From the NCBI RefSeq assembly GCF_004010195.1, contig NC_057753.1:9696622-9760621 (forward strand): a stretch of 64,000 nt of DNA. Reading direction: 5' to 3'. The notes beneath the pieces were generated by a model, which did not search any database, was not told the origin of the DNA, and saw nothing but the letters and a program-made list of their open reading frames with translations. The position numbers and the translations under genes are program-made. This DNA is from Chiloscyllium plagiosum (Eukaryota). Shown here in pieces: positions 8,534-53,167 of the stretch (positions within the stretch are counted from its first letter, which is position 1; each line of letters begins with the position of its first letter).

Positions 8534-9857
8534 AAAGACATGCGGAAAGAAATCTGAAAGCAAATAATACATTGACTTCAGACAGAGCCACTTGATTCAT
8601 TGGGACTTGAATATCAGTAGCCGTTTAAATCCAGAGGGAATGTTTGTTTTGGTCTGCTTGAGAAAGTTTGGACACTGGTGCGGCAGGAAGAATATTGAGA
8701 CGCCCAAGTGAGGGAGATTCAGTGCGCTGATTGTGAAAAGTGCTACAAACCATTTTCTCAGCTTGGGGAATCAAAATCTCGCCCCTCACGGTGGGAAAGA
8801 TTATGTCCCCGTTCTGTTTGTAATTTCAAACCCAGAGCAACACAAGGAAAGCTCCCCACTTGCGGAAGCCGTGGAAATGTAGGGACTGTGGGAAAGGGTT
8901 CCCTTCCCCATCCGTGCTGGAAATGCACAGACGCGTTCACACTGGGGAGACACCATTCACCTGCTCTGTGTGTGGGAAGGGATGCGGTTGGCTGTGCAGC
9001 CTGAAGAGACACCAGCGAGTTCACACCGGGGAGCAGACGTTCATCTGCTGCCATTGTGGGAAAGGATTCATTCAGACTTCCCACCTGCAGACACACCATC
9101 GGGTTCACACCGGAGAGAGGCCGTACTCCCGCTGTCAGTGTGGGCAGAGATTCATCGATGCATCCCACCTCCTGACGCACCAGTGCGCTCACACCGGGGA
9201 GAATCCATTCACCTGCTCCAAATGCGAGAAATCATTTGTCAATTCTTCTGGCCTGTTGAACCATCAGCAGATCCACACCAGGGAGAGGCCGTTCACCTGC
9301 TCAGTGTGCAGGAAGGGATTCAGTCAGATGGGAAACCTGCAGATGCACGAGCAAGTCCACACAGGAGAGAAGCCATTCACATGCCCTGCGTGTGGGCAGA
9401 TGTTCACTCAGTCATCTACTGTGCTAATCCACCAACGGGTCCACACTGGGGAGAGGCCGTTCAACAGCTGTGATTGTGGAAAGGGATTTGTGAATTCTTC
9501 CAGGCTACAGACCCACCAGTGGGTGCGCACTGGGGAGAGGCCATTCACCTGCTTCGGGTGTGGGAAGGGGTTCAGTCAGGTGAACAACTTGCGGACGTAC
9601 CAGAGGGTCCACACCGGGAAGAGGCCGTTCACATGCCCCGAGTGCGGGAAGGGATTCAGTCAGATGGGCTATCTGCAGACGCACCAGCAGGTTCACACCA
9701 GGAGAAGCCCTGCATGTGCTCCGTGTGCAGGATGGAGTTCACTCAGTTAGCTGCACTGCTGACTCACCAGCGGGTCTACACCGAGGAGAGGCCGTTCACC
9801 TGCACTGACTGCAGGAAGGGCTTCACCTGCTCCTCCCACCTGCAGAAGCACCAGTGA
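8534..9857 (+). pseudogene. C2H2 zinc-finger gene terminal exon, ~12 fingers, degenerate
   Basis: Acceptor tttccttctgcag at 8533. ORF 8860-9750 has 10 finger units with TGE(K/R)PF linkers, of which fingers 4, 8 and 9 lack a ligand. A frameshift at ~9705 is followed by 2 more fingers ending in a CGA>TGA-like stop. Could still make a truncated protein. Confidence 0.85.
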
Positions 9858-24599: not shown

Positions 24600-27045
24600 A
24601 ACTTGCAAGGGGCGGAAGATGACAAAGATCAAACTTGCCAGCATTGGTGTACAAGAAGGGACAGTTTACCTGTGTGATCCTGAGCAAACAGAGACTGTAC
24701 TAACTTTGCCAGGAAGATGTCCTTGTGTGCCGAGAGACTGAATGTTACCAAGAATGACTATTTCAGTGGTCAACTGCATCAAAAAGATTAACAGTTCATT
24801 TACAGAACAAGTCTAAATGGTCTTTACCCTGTAAGGGTGTTGTGTGGCAGTTTGATTACACTTGTACTATGGGCATCCCTGGTAAGCCTTGTCCTCTTTC
24901 AGATAGATCACGTAGTAAAAGAGACAAAGGGCGGATGTTATCTTTCACTAACAATTTGTTTCTAGAAACCCATAATAAAATATTTGGAGAGGATGAAGTA
25001 GTTTGTTACGCCCTTATTTTAGCAAGAGACTGCCTGACCCCTTTTATCCTTCCAAGCCCTAACATGGTGGTATAGAATAGTTCTAAAGTATTTACATGAT
25101 TATGGACTTCCTCCAATAAATCCGCAATATCCTATCCAAATTGCTACAATGGAAAGGGATGGGGGTGTGCTTATGTAAGAGTGTCTAAAATTCTCCCCTG
25201 TGCTATGATAAAATGTATCAGTTGTCACTGCTTCCCTGAAGGATCTTGCATCTCATGTGTATGCCTTAAGGAGGAATGCGTCTCTATTACCACTGGTATT
25301 CAAATCCTTTGTGGGTGGGTAACAACACTCACCTTCATTATGATACCCCTAATGGCACTAATATTTTCCCAGTTATTGGATGGGTAGAACCATTCTGGGA
25401 TGTCGACCACATCTTTTATCAAGAGACCCACCTCATTCAACTAAATCATTTCAGCCTTTACGTTTGGGACCAAACTATGTAATCATGGATTACCCAGATA
25501 CTCCAGGAAATCACAGAGAGGCGCACTTCTTATTGGGAAGGTCCCTCCATTATCTCTACTAAACCTGGATATTATGTTTTCAGTTATAATAACGCATCTA
25601 ACTAACTACCTTGTCCTGAATAGAGTAAGTACTCCTCATGCTGTAGCTGTAGGAACACTATTTCCAACTGCTGTTTCCTGTCCAATTACCTGGCAACGAG
25701 ATCATAATTCCCCTTTCAAATGTTCAGTTCCTCTGATTTTTGTGCAGAATGGAAGAATCCAAAGGTTCTATCGAAAAGTAAAATTCACTCATTGGCATAT
25801 GCAGCCCTTAGTGTTCTTTCAGGAATTATTGGTCATCAAAACTGTAATTATCTGATTTGCGGACTCACGATTTTGGGAAGTGAGACAACTGCTGCCCTAA
25901 TAGAAGTTAGGGACATGCTTTCAGAATTGCACCTATTTATCCAACAACACCCCTATGCCCTCGATTACAAACTTGTGAAGGAAGGTGGAGTGTGCGCCAT
26001 AGTCAAAGGAAAGTGCATCATGGAGGTCACTAATCTTATCAAAATCATTACTAGACATATAGATAACATCCATACTTTTGTCGACCAAGTGTATGAAAGT
26101 GCAGGATGGGGAGATTGGGATTTGGCTCATGGTACAACTAGCTAATCAATATGCCTATGTTTGTGAAGAACTTTGACCCCTCAAGAGGGGGCTTTTGGTT
26201 TGAGATCTGTCAAAAGAATCAATGAATACGGTCAATTAAAAAAGCAAGGGTTATTAGTTAATTGAATTAAGGTACCTTGACGCAATTCTATCCAGCAACA
26301 CAGAGCTTCAGAGCTTCTGTGTTCCATGGTGAAGTTGCACAATTACATTTGAAAATTACACATTATTTATGTTTTTTCAGAGATAGTACAGCCTTAGTTA
26401 CAAGAAAAGACCAATCTCATAATAAGGTGACATGATTTACAGCAGGTTAATCCAATGATATTTCATGGGAAAAACTTTCTTATTTACAAGAAAAGTCCAA
26501 TCAACTGTAATATGGTGACATGATTGACAACAGGCTAATCCAATGGTATTCCTTGGAAACGAAATCTTATTTACATAAATTGTCACGCCATGTATCAGTT
26601 CAAGGTTAGTTGGAATGGTCAATTAATGTGTCAGTATTCATTTTATGAAAACACTATTGTCCTCTAATCTTTGAATTTCAGCATAATTCTGCAAATCAGC
26701 AGTACAGGTTCACAGAGTTCAATCACTATTCTCAGCCATTTTTTAGTATTCTTTTAAATTGAAAAACCATTTTGTGGTTAATAAAAATCTACATATACTT
26801 GTTGCCTAAATTCAAATTTTAGCTCTTCATATGCTACTATTGGTTTAGTTGGTCTTTTTGTTGGTATTGCTATTGTTAAGTGTATTATTGCTAAAATATT
26901 AGTTTCTCTTGACAACATTGGTTCCACCCAGAAAATACTTGTTCTCCACTTAGATGATGATGATGAAGCATTATCATCTGCTCCTGGTTCCTCTTTGGAG
27001 GAAGAGAAAATATTGCTGTCTTTTGCTGCCATTGAATTGGATTAA
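24600..27045 (+). pseudogene. env: ERV-B env pseudogene, interrupted by an antisense LTR at ~26155-26829
   Basis: SU-like NNLFLETHNKIFG; TM ectodomain QQHPYALDYKLVKEGGVCAIVKGKC (~25945-26020); membrane anchor and tail YATIGLVGLFVGIAIVKCII...IELD* resume at 26830. Confidence 0.75.
26155..26829 (-). mobile_element. Antisense solo LTR of the ERV-B family
   Basis: Reverse complement begins TGAAGAGCTAAAATTTGAATTTAGGC and aligns with 27095-27530; TATGC is present on both flanks. Confidence 0.75.
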
Positions 27046-28562: not shown

Positions 28563-29085
28563 ATGGAGAAACCAGAGGAATTCCGCCCTGGAGAAACCGT
28601 GGAAGTGTGGCAATTGTGGGAGAGGCTTCCATGCCCCATCTGCCCTGGAGATTCATCGGCGCAGCCACACAGGGAGAGGCCATTCATCTGCCCCAAGTGT
28701 GGAAAGGCCTTCAGCAATTCCTCTGCCGTGCTGAGGCACCAGCGGGTCCACACTGGGGACAGGCCCTTCAGCTGCCCCGAGTGCCAAAAGGGCTGACACC
28801 CTGCTGATCCACACCGGGGAGAAGCTGTTCTGCTGCCCTGAGTGCGGGAAGGGATTCACTCAGGTCGGCAATTTGCACATGCACCAGCAGGTCCACATGG
28901 GGGAGAGGTCCTTCAGCTGCCCCGAGTGTGGGAAGGCCTTCAGCAATTCCTCCATCCTACTGAAGCACCAGCGGGTCCACACAGGGGAGAGGCCCTTCAG
29001 CTGCTCAGACTGCGGGAAGAGCTTTTCCAGGGTGGCCACCCTGCGGACACACCAGCGAGTTCACGTGCCATCGCGGGGAGATTGA
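28563..29085 (+). pseudogene. C2H2 zinc-finger pseudogene (~6 finger units, frameshifted)
   Basis: [33 protein letters not shown] and CSDCGKSF lie in different frames; upstream acceptor tttttacag at 28156. Confidence 0.85.
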
Positions 29086-36899: not shown

Positions 36900-37955
36900 A
36901 ATGGCTTGTGAACTCACAGGTGTGGAGGAGCGGGTGAAGGCCTTCCCACACTCAGGGCAGCTGAAGGGCATCTTCCCCCGTGTGGGTCAGCAGGGTGGAG
37001 GCGTGGGTAAAGGCCTTCCCGCACTCTGGGCAGCTGAAGGGCCTCTCCCCCTGTGTGAATCAGTTGGTGGGTCAGCAAGGCAGAGGAATCACTGAAGGCC
37101 TTCCCACACTCTGAGTAGCTGAAGGGCCTCTCCCCGATGTGGAGCCGCTCATGCCTCAGCAAGTTGGAGGAATTGCTGAAGGCCTTCCCGCACTGGGGAA
37201 GCTGAAGGGTCTCTCACCCGTGTGGAGCTGCTGGTGCCTCAGAAAGGCAGAAGAATCACTCTAGGCCTTCCTGCACTTGGGGCAACTGATGAGCCTCTCC
37301 CCTGTGTGGAGCCGCTGGTGGGTCAGTAGGTTGGAGGAATTGATGAAGACCTTCCCACGCTTAGGACAGAAGAATGGCCTCTCCCCGTGTGGATTCGCCG
37401 GTGGGTTAGCAAGTTGGAGGCCTGGGTGAAGGCCTTCCCGCACTGGGGGCAGCTGAAGGGCCTCTCCCCCGTGTGGACCAGCTGATGGGTCAGCAGAGCA
37501 GAGGAATGGCTGAAGGCCTTCTCGCACTCTGGGCAGCTGAAGGGCCTCTCCCTTGTGTAGATCCGCCGGTGGGTCAGCAGGATGGAGGCCTGGGTAAAGG
37601 CCTTCCCACACTCAGGGCAGCTGAAGGGCCTCTCCCCTTTGTGGACCTGCTGGTGGGTCAGCAGGTTGGAGGAATTGATGAAGGCCTTCCCACACTCGGG
37701 ACAGGAGAACGGCCTCTCCCCAGTGTGACTGCGCTGATGAATCTCCAGGGCAGACGGGACACAGAAGCCTTTCCCACAGTCGTCACATTTCCACCGTTTC
37801 TCCATGGGGCGGGATTCCTCAGGTTTCTCCAGGGCCAAAACTTCAGCTGCACACAAATGTGTGTACAGCCCTTCCCTGATGTGAATTCCTCTTTCCAGGC
37901 TGTATAACTGTTCCAGGCTCCATGCTCCTTGTATTGCAATGGTAGGGTCTCTCAT
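36900..37955 (-). pseudogene. C2H2 zinc-finger gene, ~11 finger units; 5 in frame, then frameshift and stop
   Basis: ORF 37323-37955 carries CDDC/CPEC/CPEC/CPEC/CPQC fingers; frameshift at ~37385 and TAG at 37261; inverted paralog of 28157-29085. Confidence 0.85.
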
Positions 37956-44500: not shown

Positions 44501-45841
44501 CTAAACATCTTTGGTGAAAGCAGAAGTGTGGTTGTGAAGACTGGACTTTCAGAGCAGCTTTCATAGATGCTTTGCCCTTACTGGGACCGGAAGAAGTTAC
44601 AATGAAATCTTTCATTTGTGAGACAGCAAGCAACTAAATTAGTACATCTGGGATTTTGGTGGAAAGTGGGAATTCGTTGCACTGTGAGGATGAAGCCGTA
44701 CCCTATCCAGTCATTTCTGCTGGTGGATTAGAATAGGCCCAAAGATTTGGAGGACGGGATTTAGAACAGAGATGAGGAGGAACTACTTTTCCCAGAGAGT
44801 AGTGAATCTATGGAATTCTCTGCCCAAGGAAGCAGTAGAGGCAGCTTCATTAAGAATATTCAAGACGCAGTCGGATGGGTTTTTGCATGGTAGAGGAATT
44901 AAGGGTAGTTGGGATAATGCAGGAAGGAGGAGCTGAGACAGTGTAAAGATCAGCCATGATCTTAACGATGAAGGAGCAGACTGGATGGGCCAAATGGTCT
45001 ACTCCTGCTTCTCTTACTATGAAACTGTAACCCTGCATTTCCCATTGGCTAGTCCACCTAACCTGCACATCCCTGGACACTCTGGGCAATTTAGCATGGC
45101 CAATCCAAATCAAGGCTGGTGAGTAGTATAGTGATGTGGGAAAATGATCAGAGATCTAAAGAAAGGGACAAGGAGAGAAAATATACCGGCAATCAAAACT
45201 GGATTTTAAGGATCACAAAAACAAACTAAAAATGGTGTGTCTGAATCTGTGGATCGTCCCAGCGCCAGGATCCAAATCGAATAGGTTCCGGGTAAGAGTC
45301 CTTAAGTAATCCTACATAAAGACTCGTTCTAAGAGAATAAATAAATGCTGCATTGTAACAAAAGTGAATGAATTGACTGCACACATTGAAGAGAATAATT
45401 ATGATCAGAGACTCCTTACAGAGACCCGCCTTCAGGATGGCACAAATTAGATCCTGAATATAGAGGGTTTGGTCAAATGGGAAGCGAGGTAAAGATAGAG
45501 GGTTGGCACTGCTAATCAAAGCACTGATCACAGGGTAGTCTGGTGTCAGCTCGGATTTCAGGTCCTGATTTCTCTGTCCCCTGTTGATCTCCCTGTTACC
45601 ACAGAGCTAGATGTTTGTCTGAGAACAGTTCTTAGCTCTGCTGGATTTCTGCTGAAGCTCTGACTCCCCGTTACACCTTCCGGAACAATAAAACATTCAG
45701 TCCATTGAGACCCAACCCACAATCGCCCAGCCTGTCAACCATCCAGACAGAGTGTAGTCATAGCAGGGTTAACAAGCAAATAAAATGAAACAAAATTAGA
45801 AATAAATGGGTGCTTGTGTTTAACGTTTGTTTATTGGGAAG

Positions 45842-46242
45842 TGTAATGGAAAATTAACATTTATTGTGAAATCTATAAAAGCATAGGGGAACAAAGAAGT
45901 AAGGGCCTGACTTTGCAGAGGGCAAGCATTGCAGACAGACAGAAAAAAGTAAGGATAAACCGACCTAACAGCAGACTTCCAAGGCCAGTAAACTACCATT
46001 GCAACAGTCAAGTAATGAGAAAAACAACTCCATATATGGAAAGGAACTCTAAATATTCCATGCTCCTAGCCTTGAGGTGTTGATAAGGAAAAGCGAATTA
46101 TATTATAAAGGGAATATGGGAAAGCTATCAGGCGCCCCTTACATGAGGCGTCTTGCCAATGTATCAGGTCTCTTTGCAGAGGTTAAAAATAAACTTTTTC
46201 TTTGCTCTTGCTAATAGTCGAGTTGATTTAATTTGCATGACA
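45842..46242 (+). repeat. ERV-A 5' LTR
   Basis: TGTAATGGAAAATTAAC...CATGACA with TATAAA (~46104) and AATAAA (~46188); homologous to 52784-53167. Confidence 0.9.
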
Positions 46243-46249
46243 GTAAACT

Positions 46250-46267
46250 TGAGGGCTCGCCCAGGAC
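46250..46267 (+). promoter_or_regulatory. Primer-binding site, tRNA-Pro-like
   Basis: TGAGGGCTCGCCCAGGAC matches the MLV tRNA-Pro PBS TGGGGGCTCGTCCGGGAT at 14/18 positions. Confidence 0.75.
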
Positions 46268-46739
46268 CCCGAAACTGGGGAAGATTCTGAAGATTCCCAG
46301 GAGGTGTAGGTGCCAGGTGAAGGACTTTCACTTCATCTCAAGCGCTAAATTGGCCCCTTTACGCGAGGGAGCTGGGAATCTGTGGATCGTCCCAGCGCCA
46401 GGATCCAAATCGAATAGGTTCCGGGTAAGAGTCGTGGCTTAAGTAATCCTACATAGAGACTCGTTCTAAGAGAATAAATAAATCAGGAGGAGGGTCCAGT
46501 GAACTCTCGCGTGGTATTAGAGTAAAACTCAAGGGAAAGGATTGCTGTCTCTAGAGTGTTTAAGAGAGAGCAGGTTTAAGGGTGGTTTTAGCCCTGGAAC
46601 CACCACTGGCTGAGTTGGACTTACCCGGATGCGTCCAATGAGAGGGAACCTCTGGAGATAAAAGCAAGTCAAATTGGCTAAAAAAAGACAGAGACAGACA
46701 GAGACACACAGAGAGAAAGACACACAGAGAAAGAGAGAG

Positions 46740-47193
46740 ACCCTTATGCGCCTCACTGAAATCCATAATGCCCATAGTGGACTGACACCACCCGAGGACA
46801 TAACAACAGCAGAAATCACACCGTATGAGGCTCACCTGAGGAACAGCTTCATCAATGGAATGAAGGACAAAAATAGCAAAAAAGGTAAAAGACATATTTC
46901 TTACCTGGGACACGGGAAAGCTCAATTTGATAGCACAACACGCGATACATGCTGAATAATTGCTGGCCCAAGAGAAGGATAAGCTCAGCTTACTATGATG
47001 CAAATAGTCGCCCAGCCGTTGGAAGGAGGTACTGCGGGAAAAGGGAGAGGCAGAGGTGGAGGTCGCGGAAAGGGAACTGGCAGGAGGTAGATCTGGCAGG
47101 TGCTTTGTTTACGGAGCAATTGACCACCGGGTGAGGCAGTGCCCACACAGGCAGCCTCAGTCAGCCCTGGAGGCTGGACAGCAGGGTGACTGA
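46740..47193 (+). pseudogene. gag: gag remnant (capsid C-terminus, RG-rich linker, single zinc knuckle); N-terminal gag apparently deleted
   Basis: EIHNAHSGL...HLRNSFINGM; GRGRGRGG; CFVYGAIDHRVRQC at 47101 (CCHC with C>Y); stop TGA-TAG at 47191. Confidence 0.8.
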
Positions 47194-47196
47194 TAG

Positions 47197-50100
47197 GGGA
47201 AGGCTAAGGTGGAGGTGGGCAGCCCACAAGGGACTAGTGAGCCTCTTTCCTTTATGCTTGGCAACGAAGACTCGCTTATGCTAATCTCTTCTACTAACCT
47301 AACGGGCACTGAAACATGTCCCACCTCCATAGTGAGTGCTGAGATTGCAGAGCGTGGACCATATGTTCAGTATAACAATGATGCGTATAAGTTGATGCCT
47401 ACCTCTATGTCATACGTGGAACGTACACCAGTTACCTTTTTGGTAGGTACAGGTGCAACCTATTCAGTCCTTAAATCATACCAGTTCGGAGAGTCAACGC
47501 AAATAAAGAGGAGTGGAAGGTTCCTGAACTCAATGGGTGCACCAGGAGTCGTGATACGAGAGAGGTTTACCCCTGTTGTGCCTGCTGTTTACCCCTGTTG
47601 TGCAAACCCAGTAATGGGGAAACATTCCAATTCTCAGTTTTGTTATCGGAATTCTGTTCTTTAAATCTGATGGCTCAGAATCTCAGTGAGACTGGGGTTG
47701 GATTTGCTCAGACGGGCTTGCAAGTAATACGAAAAGAAGATTTACCAGTGCAGGCTGTAAAATACGGCTCAGGAGCCCTGATGTATGTCTATGAATGGCG
47801 ATTAAGCCAGACAGCGATAAGTTCAGTGAGCGATTCACTCGCCCTGGAAGCAAGTAACTAAATTGGCTAACTCAAGCAGATAGGGGAGTCCAGGTAACCC
47901 CCGCTAGCCTGGAGAGCCTAGGAAGGTGGCCCTATACTATATTGGCGTTTTCCTAAGGTAGAAGTCTTGGACCCAAGATTGAGAAAGGTCCCTACTGAGT
48001 TGTGGGCAAAAGGCAAACATGACGTGGGGCTCATACGAGGCTGTGAACCCATACAAATAACCCCGAAGTCTGAGTATCGTCCTTGCAGAGCACAACACCC
48101 GTTAAAACCAGAGGCTATCGAAGGAATTACTCCAGTCTTTGAATTCCTCCTAAAGGCTGGAGTGATAATCCCCTGTGAAAACTCACTGGCGAGAACCCCC
48201 ATTTTTCTGGTCAAAAACGCAAATATTCCGGGTGAACCAGAGGAATGGAGGTTTGTTCAAGACCTACAGGCAGTCAATAACGCTGTTGTTCCGCACGCCC
48301 CAAATGTTCCCAACCCCTATACTATATTGGCTCAAATTCCACCAGACAGTAAATGATTCTCTGTTGTGGAGTTAGCAAATGCCTTCTTTAGTGTATTGGT
48401 ACACCCAGAAAGTCAATTCTGGTTCACTTTTTCATTCAAAAGAAAATCGTATACCCACACGTGACTGTCAAGGTTACTGTGAGTCCCCCCACCATATATA
48501 ATGAGGCTCCACGCAGGAGTCTGGAGACTCTTGTTCTAACCCCGCGGTCAGCGCTTCTGCTGTATGTAGATGATTGCTTAATAGCAGCACCAACAGAGGA
48601 ACAATGTGAGAAAGATACCCTTGCATTGCTCTGCCATCCAGCAAGGGAAGGGCACAAAGCTAGTCTCGCAAAGCTACAAAGTTGTGCAACTGGTGAAGTT
48701 CTTAGGTCACTTAATATCTGAACAAGGGAAGGCCATTGGTCAAGACAGAGTTCAAGCAATCCAGCAAATTCCAAAGCCTCACACGAAGAAACAATTGCTG
48801 TCCTTTTTGGGGCATGTGCTCCGACTGTAGAATGTTTATCCACATTACACAACCCATGAGGCATCTCTAAGTGACATAGCCCATGGCAAAGGGTTGCTGA
48901 GCCAGAGTCCGTTGCAGTGGACCCCAGAGGCCAAGAGTGCCTTTGCTGAATTGAAAAAGACCCTCCAAACTACACAGACACTGGGGATTCTGAATCCAAA
49001 CAAGCCTTTTGTACAAACGGTAGATGTGAAGCATGGCTGCATGACATCTCTGCTGTTACAAGATCATGGGGCAAAATTGAGGCCGGTAGCTTATTTTTCA
49101 GCAAAACTAAACCCTATAGTGGAGGATTGCCTAAATGTCTGTGAGCCGTGGCTGTAGCTGAAAAGGCTGTTGTAGTGTCCAGGGACATAATCAGCTATGG
49201 TGAATTAACCCTACTGGCCCCACATGCAGTATCCTTACTGCTACCCATGAGGCAGTCAAAGCGGGATCACTCCCTTCTCATCTGTCAGTGCAAGCAGCGG
49301 AGCTGATAGCCAACTTACATGCCTCAGTTAAGGCAAAGGGAAGGACAGTGAATATTTACACAGACAGCAGATATGCATTTGGGATTGTACATGATTTTGG
49401 AACCCTATGGAAACACAGGGACTTCTTGACCTCCTCCAGAAAGCCCATCACACACCCTGGCCTGATGTCTGACCTCCTGGAAGCGGTCCTATTGCCCAAA
49501 TCACTTGCTGTGTGTAAGTGTGAAGCCCACACAAAAAATAACAATTCCATTTCTCAAGGCAATGCGAAGACGGACTCAGCGGCAAGGACAGCAGCCCAGC
49601 AGCTGCCAAGTGATCAGTTTGACATGTGTATGACAAACATTTGAACCCCAGCAGCAGACATATGGGAGTTACAGTCACAGGCCACGCTGGAGGAGAAGCA
49701 TGAGTGGACAAGGACAGGGTGCAGCATGAGGGAAGGGGTGTGGTGTGGCCCCAATGGTAAACCCTGTCTACTACGATCATTATTCCCATTCTATGCCAAA
49801 CTGACACACGGTAATGACCATATGTCAAAAGAGGGGGAATGTACAACAGTATTTCGGCACACTGGTACACTAAGGGATTCATTACTCCCAGAAATATTGT
49901 GAATGATGTGTTATCTGTGCCACTATTAGTGTGGGGAGGGGAATACAGATGAGACAGGCAGCACACCCCCAACCCCAAAGACCTTTGAAAATTTACGGAT
50001 GGATTTTATTGAACTAACACACAGCTAAGGTAATAGTTGGTATGTTTTCCAAAGGGTGGAAGCATTCCCCACGTCTAAACAGGATGCCAGTGCAGTAGCC

Positions 50101-50776
50101 AAGGCTTTGCTAACTGAAATAATTCTGAGATGGGGCATCCCTGAAAGGCTTAGAAGTGACAATAGGACACCATTTGTCAATAATGCCTTACAGCAGATCA
50201 GTGATTACTTGGGAATAAACATGAGACAACACTGTGCCTACCACCCAGCGAGCAATGGGACAGTGGAACGAGAGAATGCTACCCTAAAAAATAAATTGAC
50301 AAAATGCTGTGAGGAACTCGGGGTGACATGGACAAAGGCACTTCCAATTGTGCTAATGTATATGAGATCTAGGAGGAGAGGAAGAGCCAATCTTCGCCCG
50401 TTTGAGATTTTGTTTGGTAAGCCGCCCAACACAGGAGTTGGCCCAAGACCTAAAGCAAGACAAATAACAGACCACAGTGAGAATGAGATGTTGTGTTACT
50501 GTAGAAAACTCTACACTTTTGTCTCAAATACAGAATCAAGTGAGAGCAGTACTACCCCAACCAGCAGGGGGGAAGCTGCACGATCTAGAACCTGGAGACT
50601 GGATAGTGGTGAAAGACTTCAAGAGGAAAAGCTGGAAGGCAAAGAGGTGGCTGGGGCCATTTCAAGTGCTCCTTACAACACAGATAGGTGTTAAAATCAC
50701 CGAAAGAACCACGTGAATATATGCCAGCCATTGCAAATGTGTAGCTGGACCCGAGGAGACATCGGAACCAAATAAG
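47197..50776 (+). pseudogene. pol: pro-pol (protease, RT, RNase H, integrase), multiple stops and frameshifts
   Basis: FLVGTGATYS (DTG>GTG), RFVQDLQAVN, LLYVDDCLIAA, VNIYTDSRYAFG...GNAKTDSAA, RSDNRTPF...HPASNGTVERENATL, and PGDWIV...RWLGPFQVLLTT. Confidence 0.95.
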
Positions 50777-50840
50777 TGCAAGCAGTGAAACTCTAATAAC
50801 CAGATTGGACTTATATACATAGGGATTGTAAGGTTGCTAG

Positions 50841-52632
50841 ATGCCTCATATAAATATGGGGCTGCCCCAGCTCACACTGTCAGTAAGCACCCTAGCAGGA
50901 CTATTCCTAAGGGCAGGGGCGTCTGAGATACAGCCGCAGACAGTAATCATAACCGAGGGTGCTAAGGGAACCTTTACATGTGACCCATGGCTGTTTAGTA
51001 ACCAGGAGGACTATAAATGGGATGATAAATATTTATGCAGGAATCCTTGTGTCCAAGTGACTGGCACTTAATAGTGGCCACCACGGCTACAGGGACACCT
51101 GACATGGGAAATAGGTATTCTATTATCAAGGAAGGAGGTCCCAGGGCACGGGTAATAATAACTAAGACTCAGAAGAATGATGAGGGGGTCTGGTGGTGTG
51201 GAATAGATAGACCCTTCTCCGACATCTATAGAAAGGTGAATATAGTGGTACAGTTCCCTCCTCCCCTCCAAGATGCAGTGCAGAAGGTCCTACAGAAGAT
51301 AGCACCAGGGGCATGGCAACCAATCAAACCAAATCATGGACATAACTCCAAGCAGGGCAAAGGGCATTAATGTCACGCCAGAACCTGGAGGGAATCAGCC
51401 CGGACTCAGGAGTGAGTCTAATTCGGTAGTGGAATTGGCCCTCCATGAGATAAATGGTGTAAGTGTGACGCCAGTAGGTTGGGAGGTGCGAAGGGCCATC
51501 GCTAGATGGGAAGGGAACAGAGCTTGTGCCTTGGCCCAAATACAACACCGGAGATTAGAGGTTGGCTACCCTTGTCGGATATGTTTGCACACAGCCCAAT
51601 GGTGGGCTGCTGAACCAATCACAGAGAGCCCGGCAAGAAATTCTAGCTGCCTGCTTCCGCAGACTACCCTGACCCTGATAGGGGGAGCAATAAGGGCAAA
51701 TCTTGCGCCACCACCCGAACGCAAGGCTAACTGCAGTCCCAAGGCTGACACGCTCCCAACCACAGCCTTCCATATAGTATTTGCACAAATCAGGGGAGAC
51801 TTCATTTGGGGATCTCCCAATATATTACGACGTTATACTTGAACAACGATTCTTACTCAGCAACCTACGCAAATGGTATGATCAACATTACTTGTTCCTT
51901 TAATCAGTAATCAGAACATGATGGCGGGTATAATATGGGCCTGTGGAGAGAGAGGGTACCACCACCTCCCTCCGGGATGGAAAGGGTGCTGCTACCCCAT
52001 GGCACAAGTGTTCATCCCAAAAGCTAGTAATGGGCAAACCCGAAGGGACATGCCACTGCATTGGAATGGGAAACACACTCGCAGGACTACATAAGGAGCG
52101 AACATTGGGTGGTCTATTCTCTTGGGAGCAGGGACAACAGTGGCAATAAACAAGATTAATGGCCTGGCATATAGTGTATAACTGTTCGCAAATAGATGGA
52201 GGAAGGTCTAGCACTCACTAATACTGAGTTAACGGCAGTAAGGGAAGCAGTGATACAAAATTGATTAGTACTAATCATACTGATGGCAGAGAAAGGGGGC
52301 ATCTGCAAATTGCAGATGCCCCCATGCTGTTTTAATATTCCTGATGTGTCCCAGAATATCACTAGTGTGATAAATCATATGAAAGCGGCAGTAGGACCGC
52401 CTCCCCCAGCATATGGCTCTTGGTTCCCATGGCTTACCTCCCTTTGGGGTATTGGATCCTACACGCTCTACTAGTTGTAGGGCTGGTCATACTAATAGTG
52501 CTTTGTATAAGGACCCTGCTTGTGTACCTGCCTATGGCGTTTGCTTATGAGTGCAGCGGGATGCCAAATGGTAAAACGACCAGAGACTCCAACGCAGGAA
52601 AACCCGATTGCATGGATCCCACCATACAGTAA
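50841..52632 (+). pseudogene. env: env with N-terminal Ig V-set domain, frameshifted
   Basis: Signal peptide ending AGA|S; Ig V domain 50922-51253; Pro-rich linker; CRIC (CWxC-like) at 51573; QTRR furin-site remnant at 52035; fusion-peptide-like GGLF..GAGTTVA; ISD QN*LVL..LMAEKGG plus CX6CC (52304-52330); TM LLVVGLVILIVLCI. Confidence 0.9.
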
Positions 52633-52783: not shown

Positions 52784-53167
52784 TGTCATGAAATGGAAAA
52801 TTAACATTCATTGGGGAATAAAGAAGTAAGGATCTGACTGGAACTAAGGGTATTGCAAACAAACAAAAATGTAAAGGCAAACCGACCTAACAGCAGACTT
52901 ACAAGGCCAGTTAAACTACCATGTCAGCAGCCAAGAAATGAGAAAATCAACTCCATATATGGAAAGGAACTTGAATGTTCCAGGCCTCTAGCCATGCAGG
53001 TGCTGATAAGGAAAAGTGAATTCTAGTATAAAGGGAGTATGTGAAAGCAAGACGCCCCTTACATGAGGTGTCTTGCCAATGTATTGAGTCTCTTTGCAAA
53101 GGTCTGAAATAAACATTTTCTTTGCTCTTGCAAGCATTTGAGTTGAGTCAATTTAACTTCCACGACA
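52784..53167 (+). repeat. ERV-A 3' LTR
   Basis: TGTCATGAAATGGAAAATTAAC...CACGACA with TATAAA and AATAAA; clearly diverged from the 5' LTR. Confidence 0.9.

Follow-up and report, generated by a model that had tools for sequence, protein, structure and literature searches.

What is a host-type immunoglobulin V (IgV) domain doing at the front of a retroviral envelope gene? The question is raised by a locus on the plus strand of the window (the whole stretch of DNA analysed here, 64,000 nucleotides), which was originally predicted to encode a gamma-type Env with an Ig domain in the slot of its receptor-binding domain (RBD). In gamma-type Envs, contact with the cell is made by an independently folding N-terminal RBD that a linker carries, and CXXC and CX6CC motifs join the C-domain to TM; the classical gamma RBD is itself a modified IgV fold (Hotzel, main text of 10.1101/2024.03.17.585361). 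Whether the domain in the window belongs to the Env at all, where it came from, what it did and how it relates to known RBDs are considered in turn below.

At positions 50856-52632 lies a broken env gene, which belongs to an old endogenous retrovirus of class I that is present in many copies; this copy is on the plus strand. Assignment to class I (gamma/epsilon-like) follows from the combination of an LTR pair, a pol with MLV-like reverse transcriptase (RT), RNase H and integrase, and env. Apart from env, the provirus comprises the following parts.

45842-46242, plus strand: 5' LTR, TG...CA, with TATA-like and polyadenylation-like words (LTR alignment)
46250-46267, plus strand: primer-binding-site-like stretch
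46660-47190, plus strand: short degraded stretch, probably a gag remnant, judging from its position and a decayed zinc-knuckle-like motif
47197-50788, plus strand: broken pro-pol with RT, RNase H and an integrase with MLV-type C-terminal domain
52789-53167, plus strand: 3' LTR (LTR alignment)

Over 371 aligned bases the two LTRs have diverged by 15.4% (K2P 0.17), and among solved structures MLV RT is the nearest to the RT piece (E 1e-12). The stretch at 46250-46267 presumably resembles a tRNA-Pro primer-binding site. The gag-like remnant (46660-47190) has no Pfam match, and no target-site duplication is evident at the provirus. The provirus leader (46376-46483) recurs, 95% identical, at 45243-45346, upstream of the 5' LTR, and the left end of the provirus may be a rearranged tandem insertion. 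Elsewhere in the window, a second, unrelated env TM remnant (25750-26130, plus strand) is 22-28% identical to fish Envs and has no Ig match upstream with the Ig-bearing profile. Arrays with an 84-base period lie at 8931-9822, 28672-29025 and 36909-37805, a period that we take to be as expected of C2H2 zinc-finger genes.

In the window, the env gene lies downstream of pol and between the LTRs. Its layout is as follows.

50856-50921, plus strand: predicted Env signal peptide (hydropathy and position)
50922-51253, plus strand: four-cysteine IgV domain with B-F pair and Cx3C, CD300/NILT/pIgR-like, frameshifted near 51053-51062
51254-51480, plus strand: proline-containing linker, frameshifted near 51300-51340
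51481-52034, plus strand: SU segment holding the CXXC motif (51573), from alignment with intact relatives
52035-52049, plus strand: SU/TM furin-site remnant, aligning with R-x-K-R of intact relatives
52095-52178, plus strand: putative fusion-peptide-like segment, at a distance from the cleavage site
52199-52446, plus strand: TM ectodomain with heptad repeat, ISD and CX6CC (52304-52330), with a stop at 52262
52447-52632, plus strand: membrane anchor (52447-52542) and cytoplasmic tail in a further frame, stop at 52632

Judged by its motifs, namely CXXC in SU and ISD followed by CX6CC in TM, this env is of the gamma type. The copy is dead: it carries four frameshifts (near 51053-51062, 51300-51340, ~52190 and ~52445) and at least five stops (51840, 51879, 52092, 52179 and 52262). 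Three-frame translation nevertheless recovers every element in the order originally read, from signal peptide, IgV and linker through CXXC, furin remnant, fusion peptide and ISD to CX6CC and anchor, and places signal peptide and SU in one reading frame. The extent given at first, 50922-52330, was too narrow, as the reading frame starts 66 bases earlier and ends about 300 bases later. A hydropathy scan of all plus-strand frames bore out the absence of a second signal peptide, with no hydrophobic stretch between Ig and CXXC. The proline-rich linker held up as a linker, but its middle piece from 51302 falls in the second-frameshift zone and was probably read off-frame. It is about 35 codons longer than the linkers of fish relatives; two similar short segments lie at 51360-51490, and the extra length possibly stems from an internal duplication there.

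Several details of the SU and TM regions become clear against intact relatives. The CXXC at 51573 aligns with their CWxC, and its odd residue is private to the window copy, since at 51576 nearly all contig depth differs from the window (3690/3709, 6972/6995 and 342/349 in three runs). The furin site is reduced to a dibasic remnant, whereas intact relatives show R-x-K/R-R at the aligned place, and their fusion peptide likewise lies back from the cleavage site, by about 25 residues. The TM piece matches TLV_coat (E 0.00025), as well as GP2, syncytin and ASLV TM chains.

The Ig domain itself, with cysteines at 50979, 51036, 51048 and 51197, is split by a frameshift and has to be identified from its parts. 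Its second half matches Pfam V-set at E 0.001, short of the curated threshold. With a profile built from 15 intact fish viral Ig domains, the two halves score 19.0 and 23.7 bits, as against no match and 19.7 bits with Pfam V-set, and the whole domain, with an X at the break, reaches 51.6 bits. The best score obtained from shuffled sequences was 7.4 bits (200 shuffles, 183 scored). The V-set match, the margin over the best shuffle and the accompanying SU and TM matches together make the window Ig more than a chance resemblance.

To look for intact relatives, a piece of SU free of stops and of any Ig residue was compared with 1.84 billion proteins. Ten matches were obtained, eight of them fish Env-like proteins and two unrelated repeats, and in three of the eight fish matches a V-set domain lies upstream of the Env, the best being Danio rerio XP_073780150.1 (E 1.5e-5). 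A profile search then raised the family to 43 members, of which every named vertebrate species is cypriniform; these cypriniform proteins are filed as uncharacterised or hypothetical. Two members (P0036 and P0039) are filed as Plesiomonas and Cetobacterium MAG proteins and probably represent fish DNA that entered gut assemblies. Protein searches by word index with the window SU-TM (>534 aa) and Ig half (>139 aa) gave no match, and it was the word-free search that found the relatives. At the DNA level, scans of viral, metagenome and prokaryote collections yielded no confirmed locus, and none that would place the fish genes in a retroviral context. Zebrafish Env38 was considered as an already known member and rejected on size, having 428 aa with a 226-aa SU; no Ig domain is named for it in the pertinent part of the source (PMC10072453).

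The window and the fish proteins are evidently members of one family. Against zebrafish XP_073780150.1, the window SU is 31% identical (E 1e-32) and the window TM 49% (E 3e-27), and with nine intact fish Envs the window is colinear over Ig, SU and TM, at identities of 24-33%, 26-33% and 48-60%, respectively. The cypriniform Envs (Danio rerio XP_073780150.1 and others from Triplophysa, Onychostoma and Leuciscus) share the order IgV, linker, CWxC and CX6CC. They differ from the window copy in being intact, in having a shorter linker and a longer C-domain and, in most cases, in an extra cysteine pair, which is carried on an enlarged B-C loop. Ten fish members (P0010, P0020-P0026, P0032 and P0033) have an extended leader and, immediately ahead of the IgV, a further R-x-K/R-R site, whereas the window has a short signal peptide and lacks that further site. 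One member (P0024) stands for a 105-member cluster with several full-length proteins (643-667 aa) on different contigs, which suggests a recently amplified family.

Are Ig and Env parts of a single protein? In the window copy, an Ig-frame stop at 51368 and an SU-frame ATG at 51336 could be read as the end of a separate secreted ORF, or of a locus-specific insertion, with the neighbouring env starting anew and its adjacency accidental. No hydrophobic leader follows the ATG at 51336, however, and the intact relatives are single ORFs: 18 of the 28 fetched proteins with both CWxC and CX6CC hold all four Ig cysteines in the same ORF, which refutes such a separation for the cypriniform relatives. 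Among the other ten, four begin shortly before the CWxC, two have a partial Ig and four are leader-bearing but Ig-less. Neither a conserved stop after the Ig nor an independent env start was found, and the prediction of a single ancestral ORF with IgV in the RBD position is upheld by these relatives and by contigs from other copies.

Closer copies of the element are represented by 1560, 1462 and 1023 contig records from three species, mostly 80-95% alike. Among 24 of 4186 contig pieces, three bridge the end of pol and the leader or Ig, two cross the Ig break and five run from Ig into SU, although none spans the whole pol-Ig-SU stretch; in all three species, contigs of other copies are continuous across both junctions of the Ig. 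At 51302, within the second-frameshift zone, six contigs of one run (X12) diverge from the window. No joint removing exactly the Ig domain was seen among 15 of 123 joints. Taken with the intact one-ORF relatives, the bridging contigs show the Ig to be a regular component of a multicopy family of viral Envs, and a separate or accidental origin of the Ig is extremely improbable. Contigs of another run (X1) link the end of pol (50637) to a point just before the 3' LTR (52752), so that env-less copies of the family exist as well. Summed contig depth, which is not copy number, is several times higher over pol than over env. In runs X1 and X12 it also exceeds, at 51056-51223 within the second half of the Ig, the level across most of env, an excess that is possibly shared with another element. 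About 2% of one RNA run yielded six partial reads below 95% identity, which are no evidence of expression.

From what kind of protein was the domain derived? Fold comparisons rest not on the window copy but on its intact relative P0045, modelled with AlphaFold from a 25-row alignment; a full-length model of the zebrafish protein had a mean pLDDT of 36.6 and was left unused, and atlas feature scores below 0.9 were taken as leads only. The P0045 model is a V-set sandwich whose core strands have pLDDT values of about 90. Its best fold matches are CD300lf, CD300a and TREM2 (Z 11.1, rmsd 2.2-3.0, 96-102 residues aligned), with pIgR domains at Z 10.7-10.8, and a wider search returned CD300lf at 10.9, a nectin-like domain at 10.8 and pIgR again at 10.7-10.8. 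Many IgV families, such as nectin-like, Siglec, TIM and butyrophilin domains, lie within one Z unit, so that the fold alone cannot name the donor. At the sequence level, the family profile ranks pIgR and CD300lf at the top among Ig-type chains, while P0045 on its own first matches antibody light chains. SIRP is not among the matches listed in either the sequence or the fold searches, which are led by CD300, TREM2 and pIgR.

Fold matches and profile ranking thus agree with the kinship to the CD300/TREM/pIgR group proposed at the outset, and the donor was likely a fish receptor of the CD300/NILT/pIgR clan. The accompanying proposal that the viral domain bound lipids or polymeric Ig, as mammalian members of the group do (ligands are treated in part in PMC12570474), found no support. 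The inner cysteine pair of the window, and of those relatives that hold the motif, has the spacing Cx3C. This spacing is found in some fish NILT domains, whereas human CD300 and TREM domains have Cx6-9C (10.1101/2022.04.21.489081, relevant sections) and pIgR has Cx7C (PMC9321927, relevant section). Since Cx3C points to a fish-type receptor, mammalian CD300 and pIgR ligands cannot be carried over, and the ligands of fish NILT receptors are themselves described as unknown (10.1101/2022.04.21.489081). Fish NILT and CD300/TREM/pIgR domains are likewise IgV domains with an inner cysteine pair, but the viral domain is only about 20-24% identical to solved host domains, is not Cx7C, lacks the strand-C motif YWCR given for CD300 (PMC3031540, in part), has no signalling tail and forms part of a fusion protein.

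How often was such a domain acquired? Between the window and the fishes, the Ig has diverged as much as SU (24-33% against 26-33%). Trees of fish Ig and SU have a Danio pair and a loach-like pair in common, both with strong support, and P0021 groups with P0023 in both; the window itself, whose branches are very long throughout, is not placed by the three trees, which were built without host domains. Because the Ig diverges like SU, fits the fish viral profile and shares groups between trees, a single capture followed by co-descent is favoured. On this view, viral RNA would have recombined with a host transcript and so taken up, once, the IgV of a host immune receptor of CD300/NILT/pIgR type; this would have happened before the window and cypriniform lineages parted. 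An Ig identity of only 24-33% and unlike N-termini, a short signal peptide in the window but, in the fishes, a long leader that carries an additional furin-like site, could instead reflect independent captures of similar host domains by the two lineages, a matter distinct from the questions of role and of kinship with other RBDs. The Env bodies, however, are each other's closest relatives found, the position of the Ig, its cysteine pattern and its strand-B and strand-G motifs are shared, and its divergence resembles that of SU, so that we regard separate captures as very unlikely.

What did the captured domain do? The reading that we prefer, with a probability of roughly two in three, is that the host-captured IgV served as a virus attachment module. 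In gamma-type Envs, isomerisation of the SU-TM disulfide bond releases TM for fusion. The IgV would be displayed at the tip of SU on its flexible linker, where it would bind a cell-surface ligand, concentrate virions on the cell and assist or trigger the C-domain; CXXC/CX6CC disulfide isomerisation would then release TM. An attachment role is favoured because the IgV fills the RBD slot and because the hypothetical model of Hotzel expects an adhesin there, a newly acquired RBD acting as adhesin first and as trigger only later (main text of 10.1101/2024.03.17.585361). If the head bound lipids, it would presumably also encounter that ligand in the membrane of the virion itself.

A captured IgV might, on the other hand, have worked mainly as an immune decoy or modulator, on the virion or on shed SU, by engaging or masking what a host inhibitory receptor binds, with binding of the entry receptor left to the C-domain. 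The donor clan consists of immune-regulatory receptors, Ig-like glycoproteins of large DNA viruses are the top matches in a viral fold library, and several gamma-type Envs bind their receptors without an N-terminal RBD (main text of 10.1101/2024.03.17.585361). Open Envs without Ig also exist. In the 506-aa proteins P0030, P0077, P0078 and P0079 the leader runs directly into the linker and the entire IgV is gone; this form is present on two Anabarilius scaffolds at 99% identity, where it is annotated 'Syncytin-A', and a second Ig-less form, 94% alike, occurs in Logan contigs. In the SU tree the Ig-less Env adjoins an Ig-bearing protein (support 92/90, below the starred bar), which suggests that the Ig was lost later in this lineage. 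Either the Ig may be dispensable for spread or the Ig-less copies may have moved without an Env of their own. A principal role as decoy is nonetheless unlikely: the Ig lies exactly in the RBD slot before linker and CXXC, in frame across divergent lineages, and is accompanied neither by a signalling tail nor by a separate secreted ORF. Decoy and attachment roles do not exclude one another.

An attachment module of this kind has to be compared with the RBDs already described for CXXC Envs. Gamma-type Envs with an RBD of the RBD-C class (MLV, FeLV, Env-Pb1 and ZFERV) have the same order of RBD, linker, CXXC-bearing C-domain, furin site and TM, and their RBD is IgV-like. RBD-C lacks the B-F disulfide, however, and has VRA/VRB loops or a conserved tetrad (main text of 10.1101/2024.03.17.585361), whereas the viral Ig conserves its B and F cysteines and is still detectably similar to host V-set domains. 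Membership of the RBD-C class was rejected on the canonical B-F disulfide cysteines, which the window and 18 of the 28 relatives retain; the RBD-C structures 1AOL and 6W5Y are not among the fold matches listed.

Could the domain still be an early, little-modified form of the classical RBD-C of MLV, Env-Pb1 and ZFERV, with no separate capture, from which the later forms lost the B-F disulfide and grew VRA/VRB loops? Slot, fold class and CXXC-type Env are the same, Hotzel derives RBD-C from a vertebrate IgV gene that is left unidentified, and the enlarged B-C loop with its cysteine pair in the fish members may recall the expansion of the variable regions. The B-F pair is nonetheless conserved in the viral Ig and missing from RBD-C, no ZFERV-named protein occurs among the 43 family matches, and RBD-less Envs are basal in the main group according to Hotzel (main text of 10.1101/2024.03.17.585361). 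No RBD-C structure is among the matches listed in three PDB fold searches. We hold this derivation to be decidedly unlikely. The broader proposition, that the viral Ig family represents the ancestral state of the gammaretroviral RBD and the source of RBD-C in ZFERV, Env-Pb1 and MLV, is quite unlikely as well; if true, it would name the vertebrate IgV source of RBD-C and provide intact examples in zebrafish.

For a host-captured attachment domain, the literature offers one precedent. The only host capture in print concerns Envs without CXXC; in the survey that describes it, CXXC Envs yielded no additional class of RBD, and where the classical gamma RBD came from is left open by its author; the main text makes no mention of shark, fish, CD300 or pIgR, and the Env list in its supplement may bear on novelty (10.1101/2024.03.17.585361). 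A study of fish retroviruses carrying cellular genes (Basta 2009) is cited in the relevant part of a review (PMC4977317) for CNPase and macro domains only. In the literature searched, which left subscription journals uncovered, no fish or shark Env was found described as carrying a CD300/NILT/pIgR-like domain. The idea that a host domain retargeted an Env is thus not in itself new, one host-IgV capture being already in print, but its CXXC context apparently is. As far as our literature searches reach, this is the first host-IgV capture in a CXXC Env and apparently a second, independent capture of a host IgV into a retroviral RBD slot. The captured domain probably stems from a different receptor clan, sits in a true CXXC/CX6CC Env and is common to viruses of very distant fish hosts. 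Intact members, in zebrafish and in the 105-member cluster, make its role as a captured RBD testable, with the Ig-less forms as a natural comparison, and the ligand of the viral domain could point to ligands of orphan fish Ig receptors.

The closest parallel is the SIRP-like class of Envs (Env-Dbi and Env-Per), in which a canonical host-type IgV with B-F disulfide likewise stands at the N-terminus of SU and is likewise read as a host capture. Membership of that class was rejected because CXXC is present in the window family; the viral Ig would act as the RBDs of both classes do and falls into neither. Env-Dbi and Env-Per are alpharetrovirus-like Envs of mammals that contain no CXXC and took their domain from SIRP (main text of 10.1101/2024.03.17.585361), whereas the family described here combines CXXC and CX6CC with a Cx3C domain of CD300/NILT/pIgR type and is found in cartilaginous-type and cypriniform fishes.
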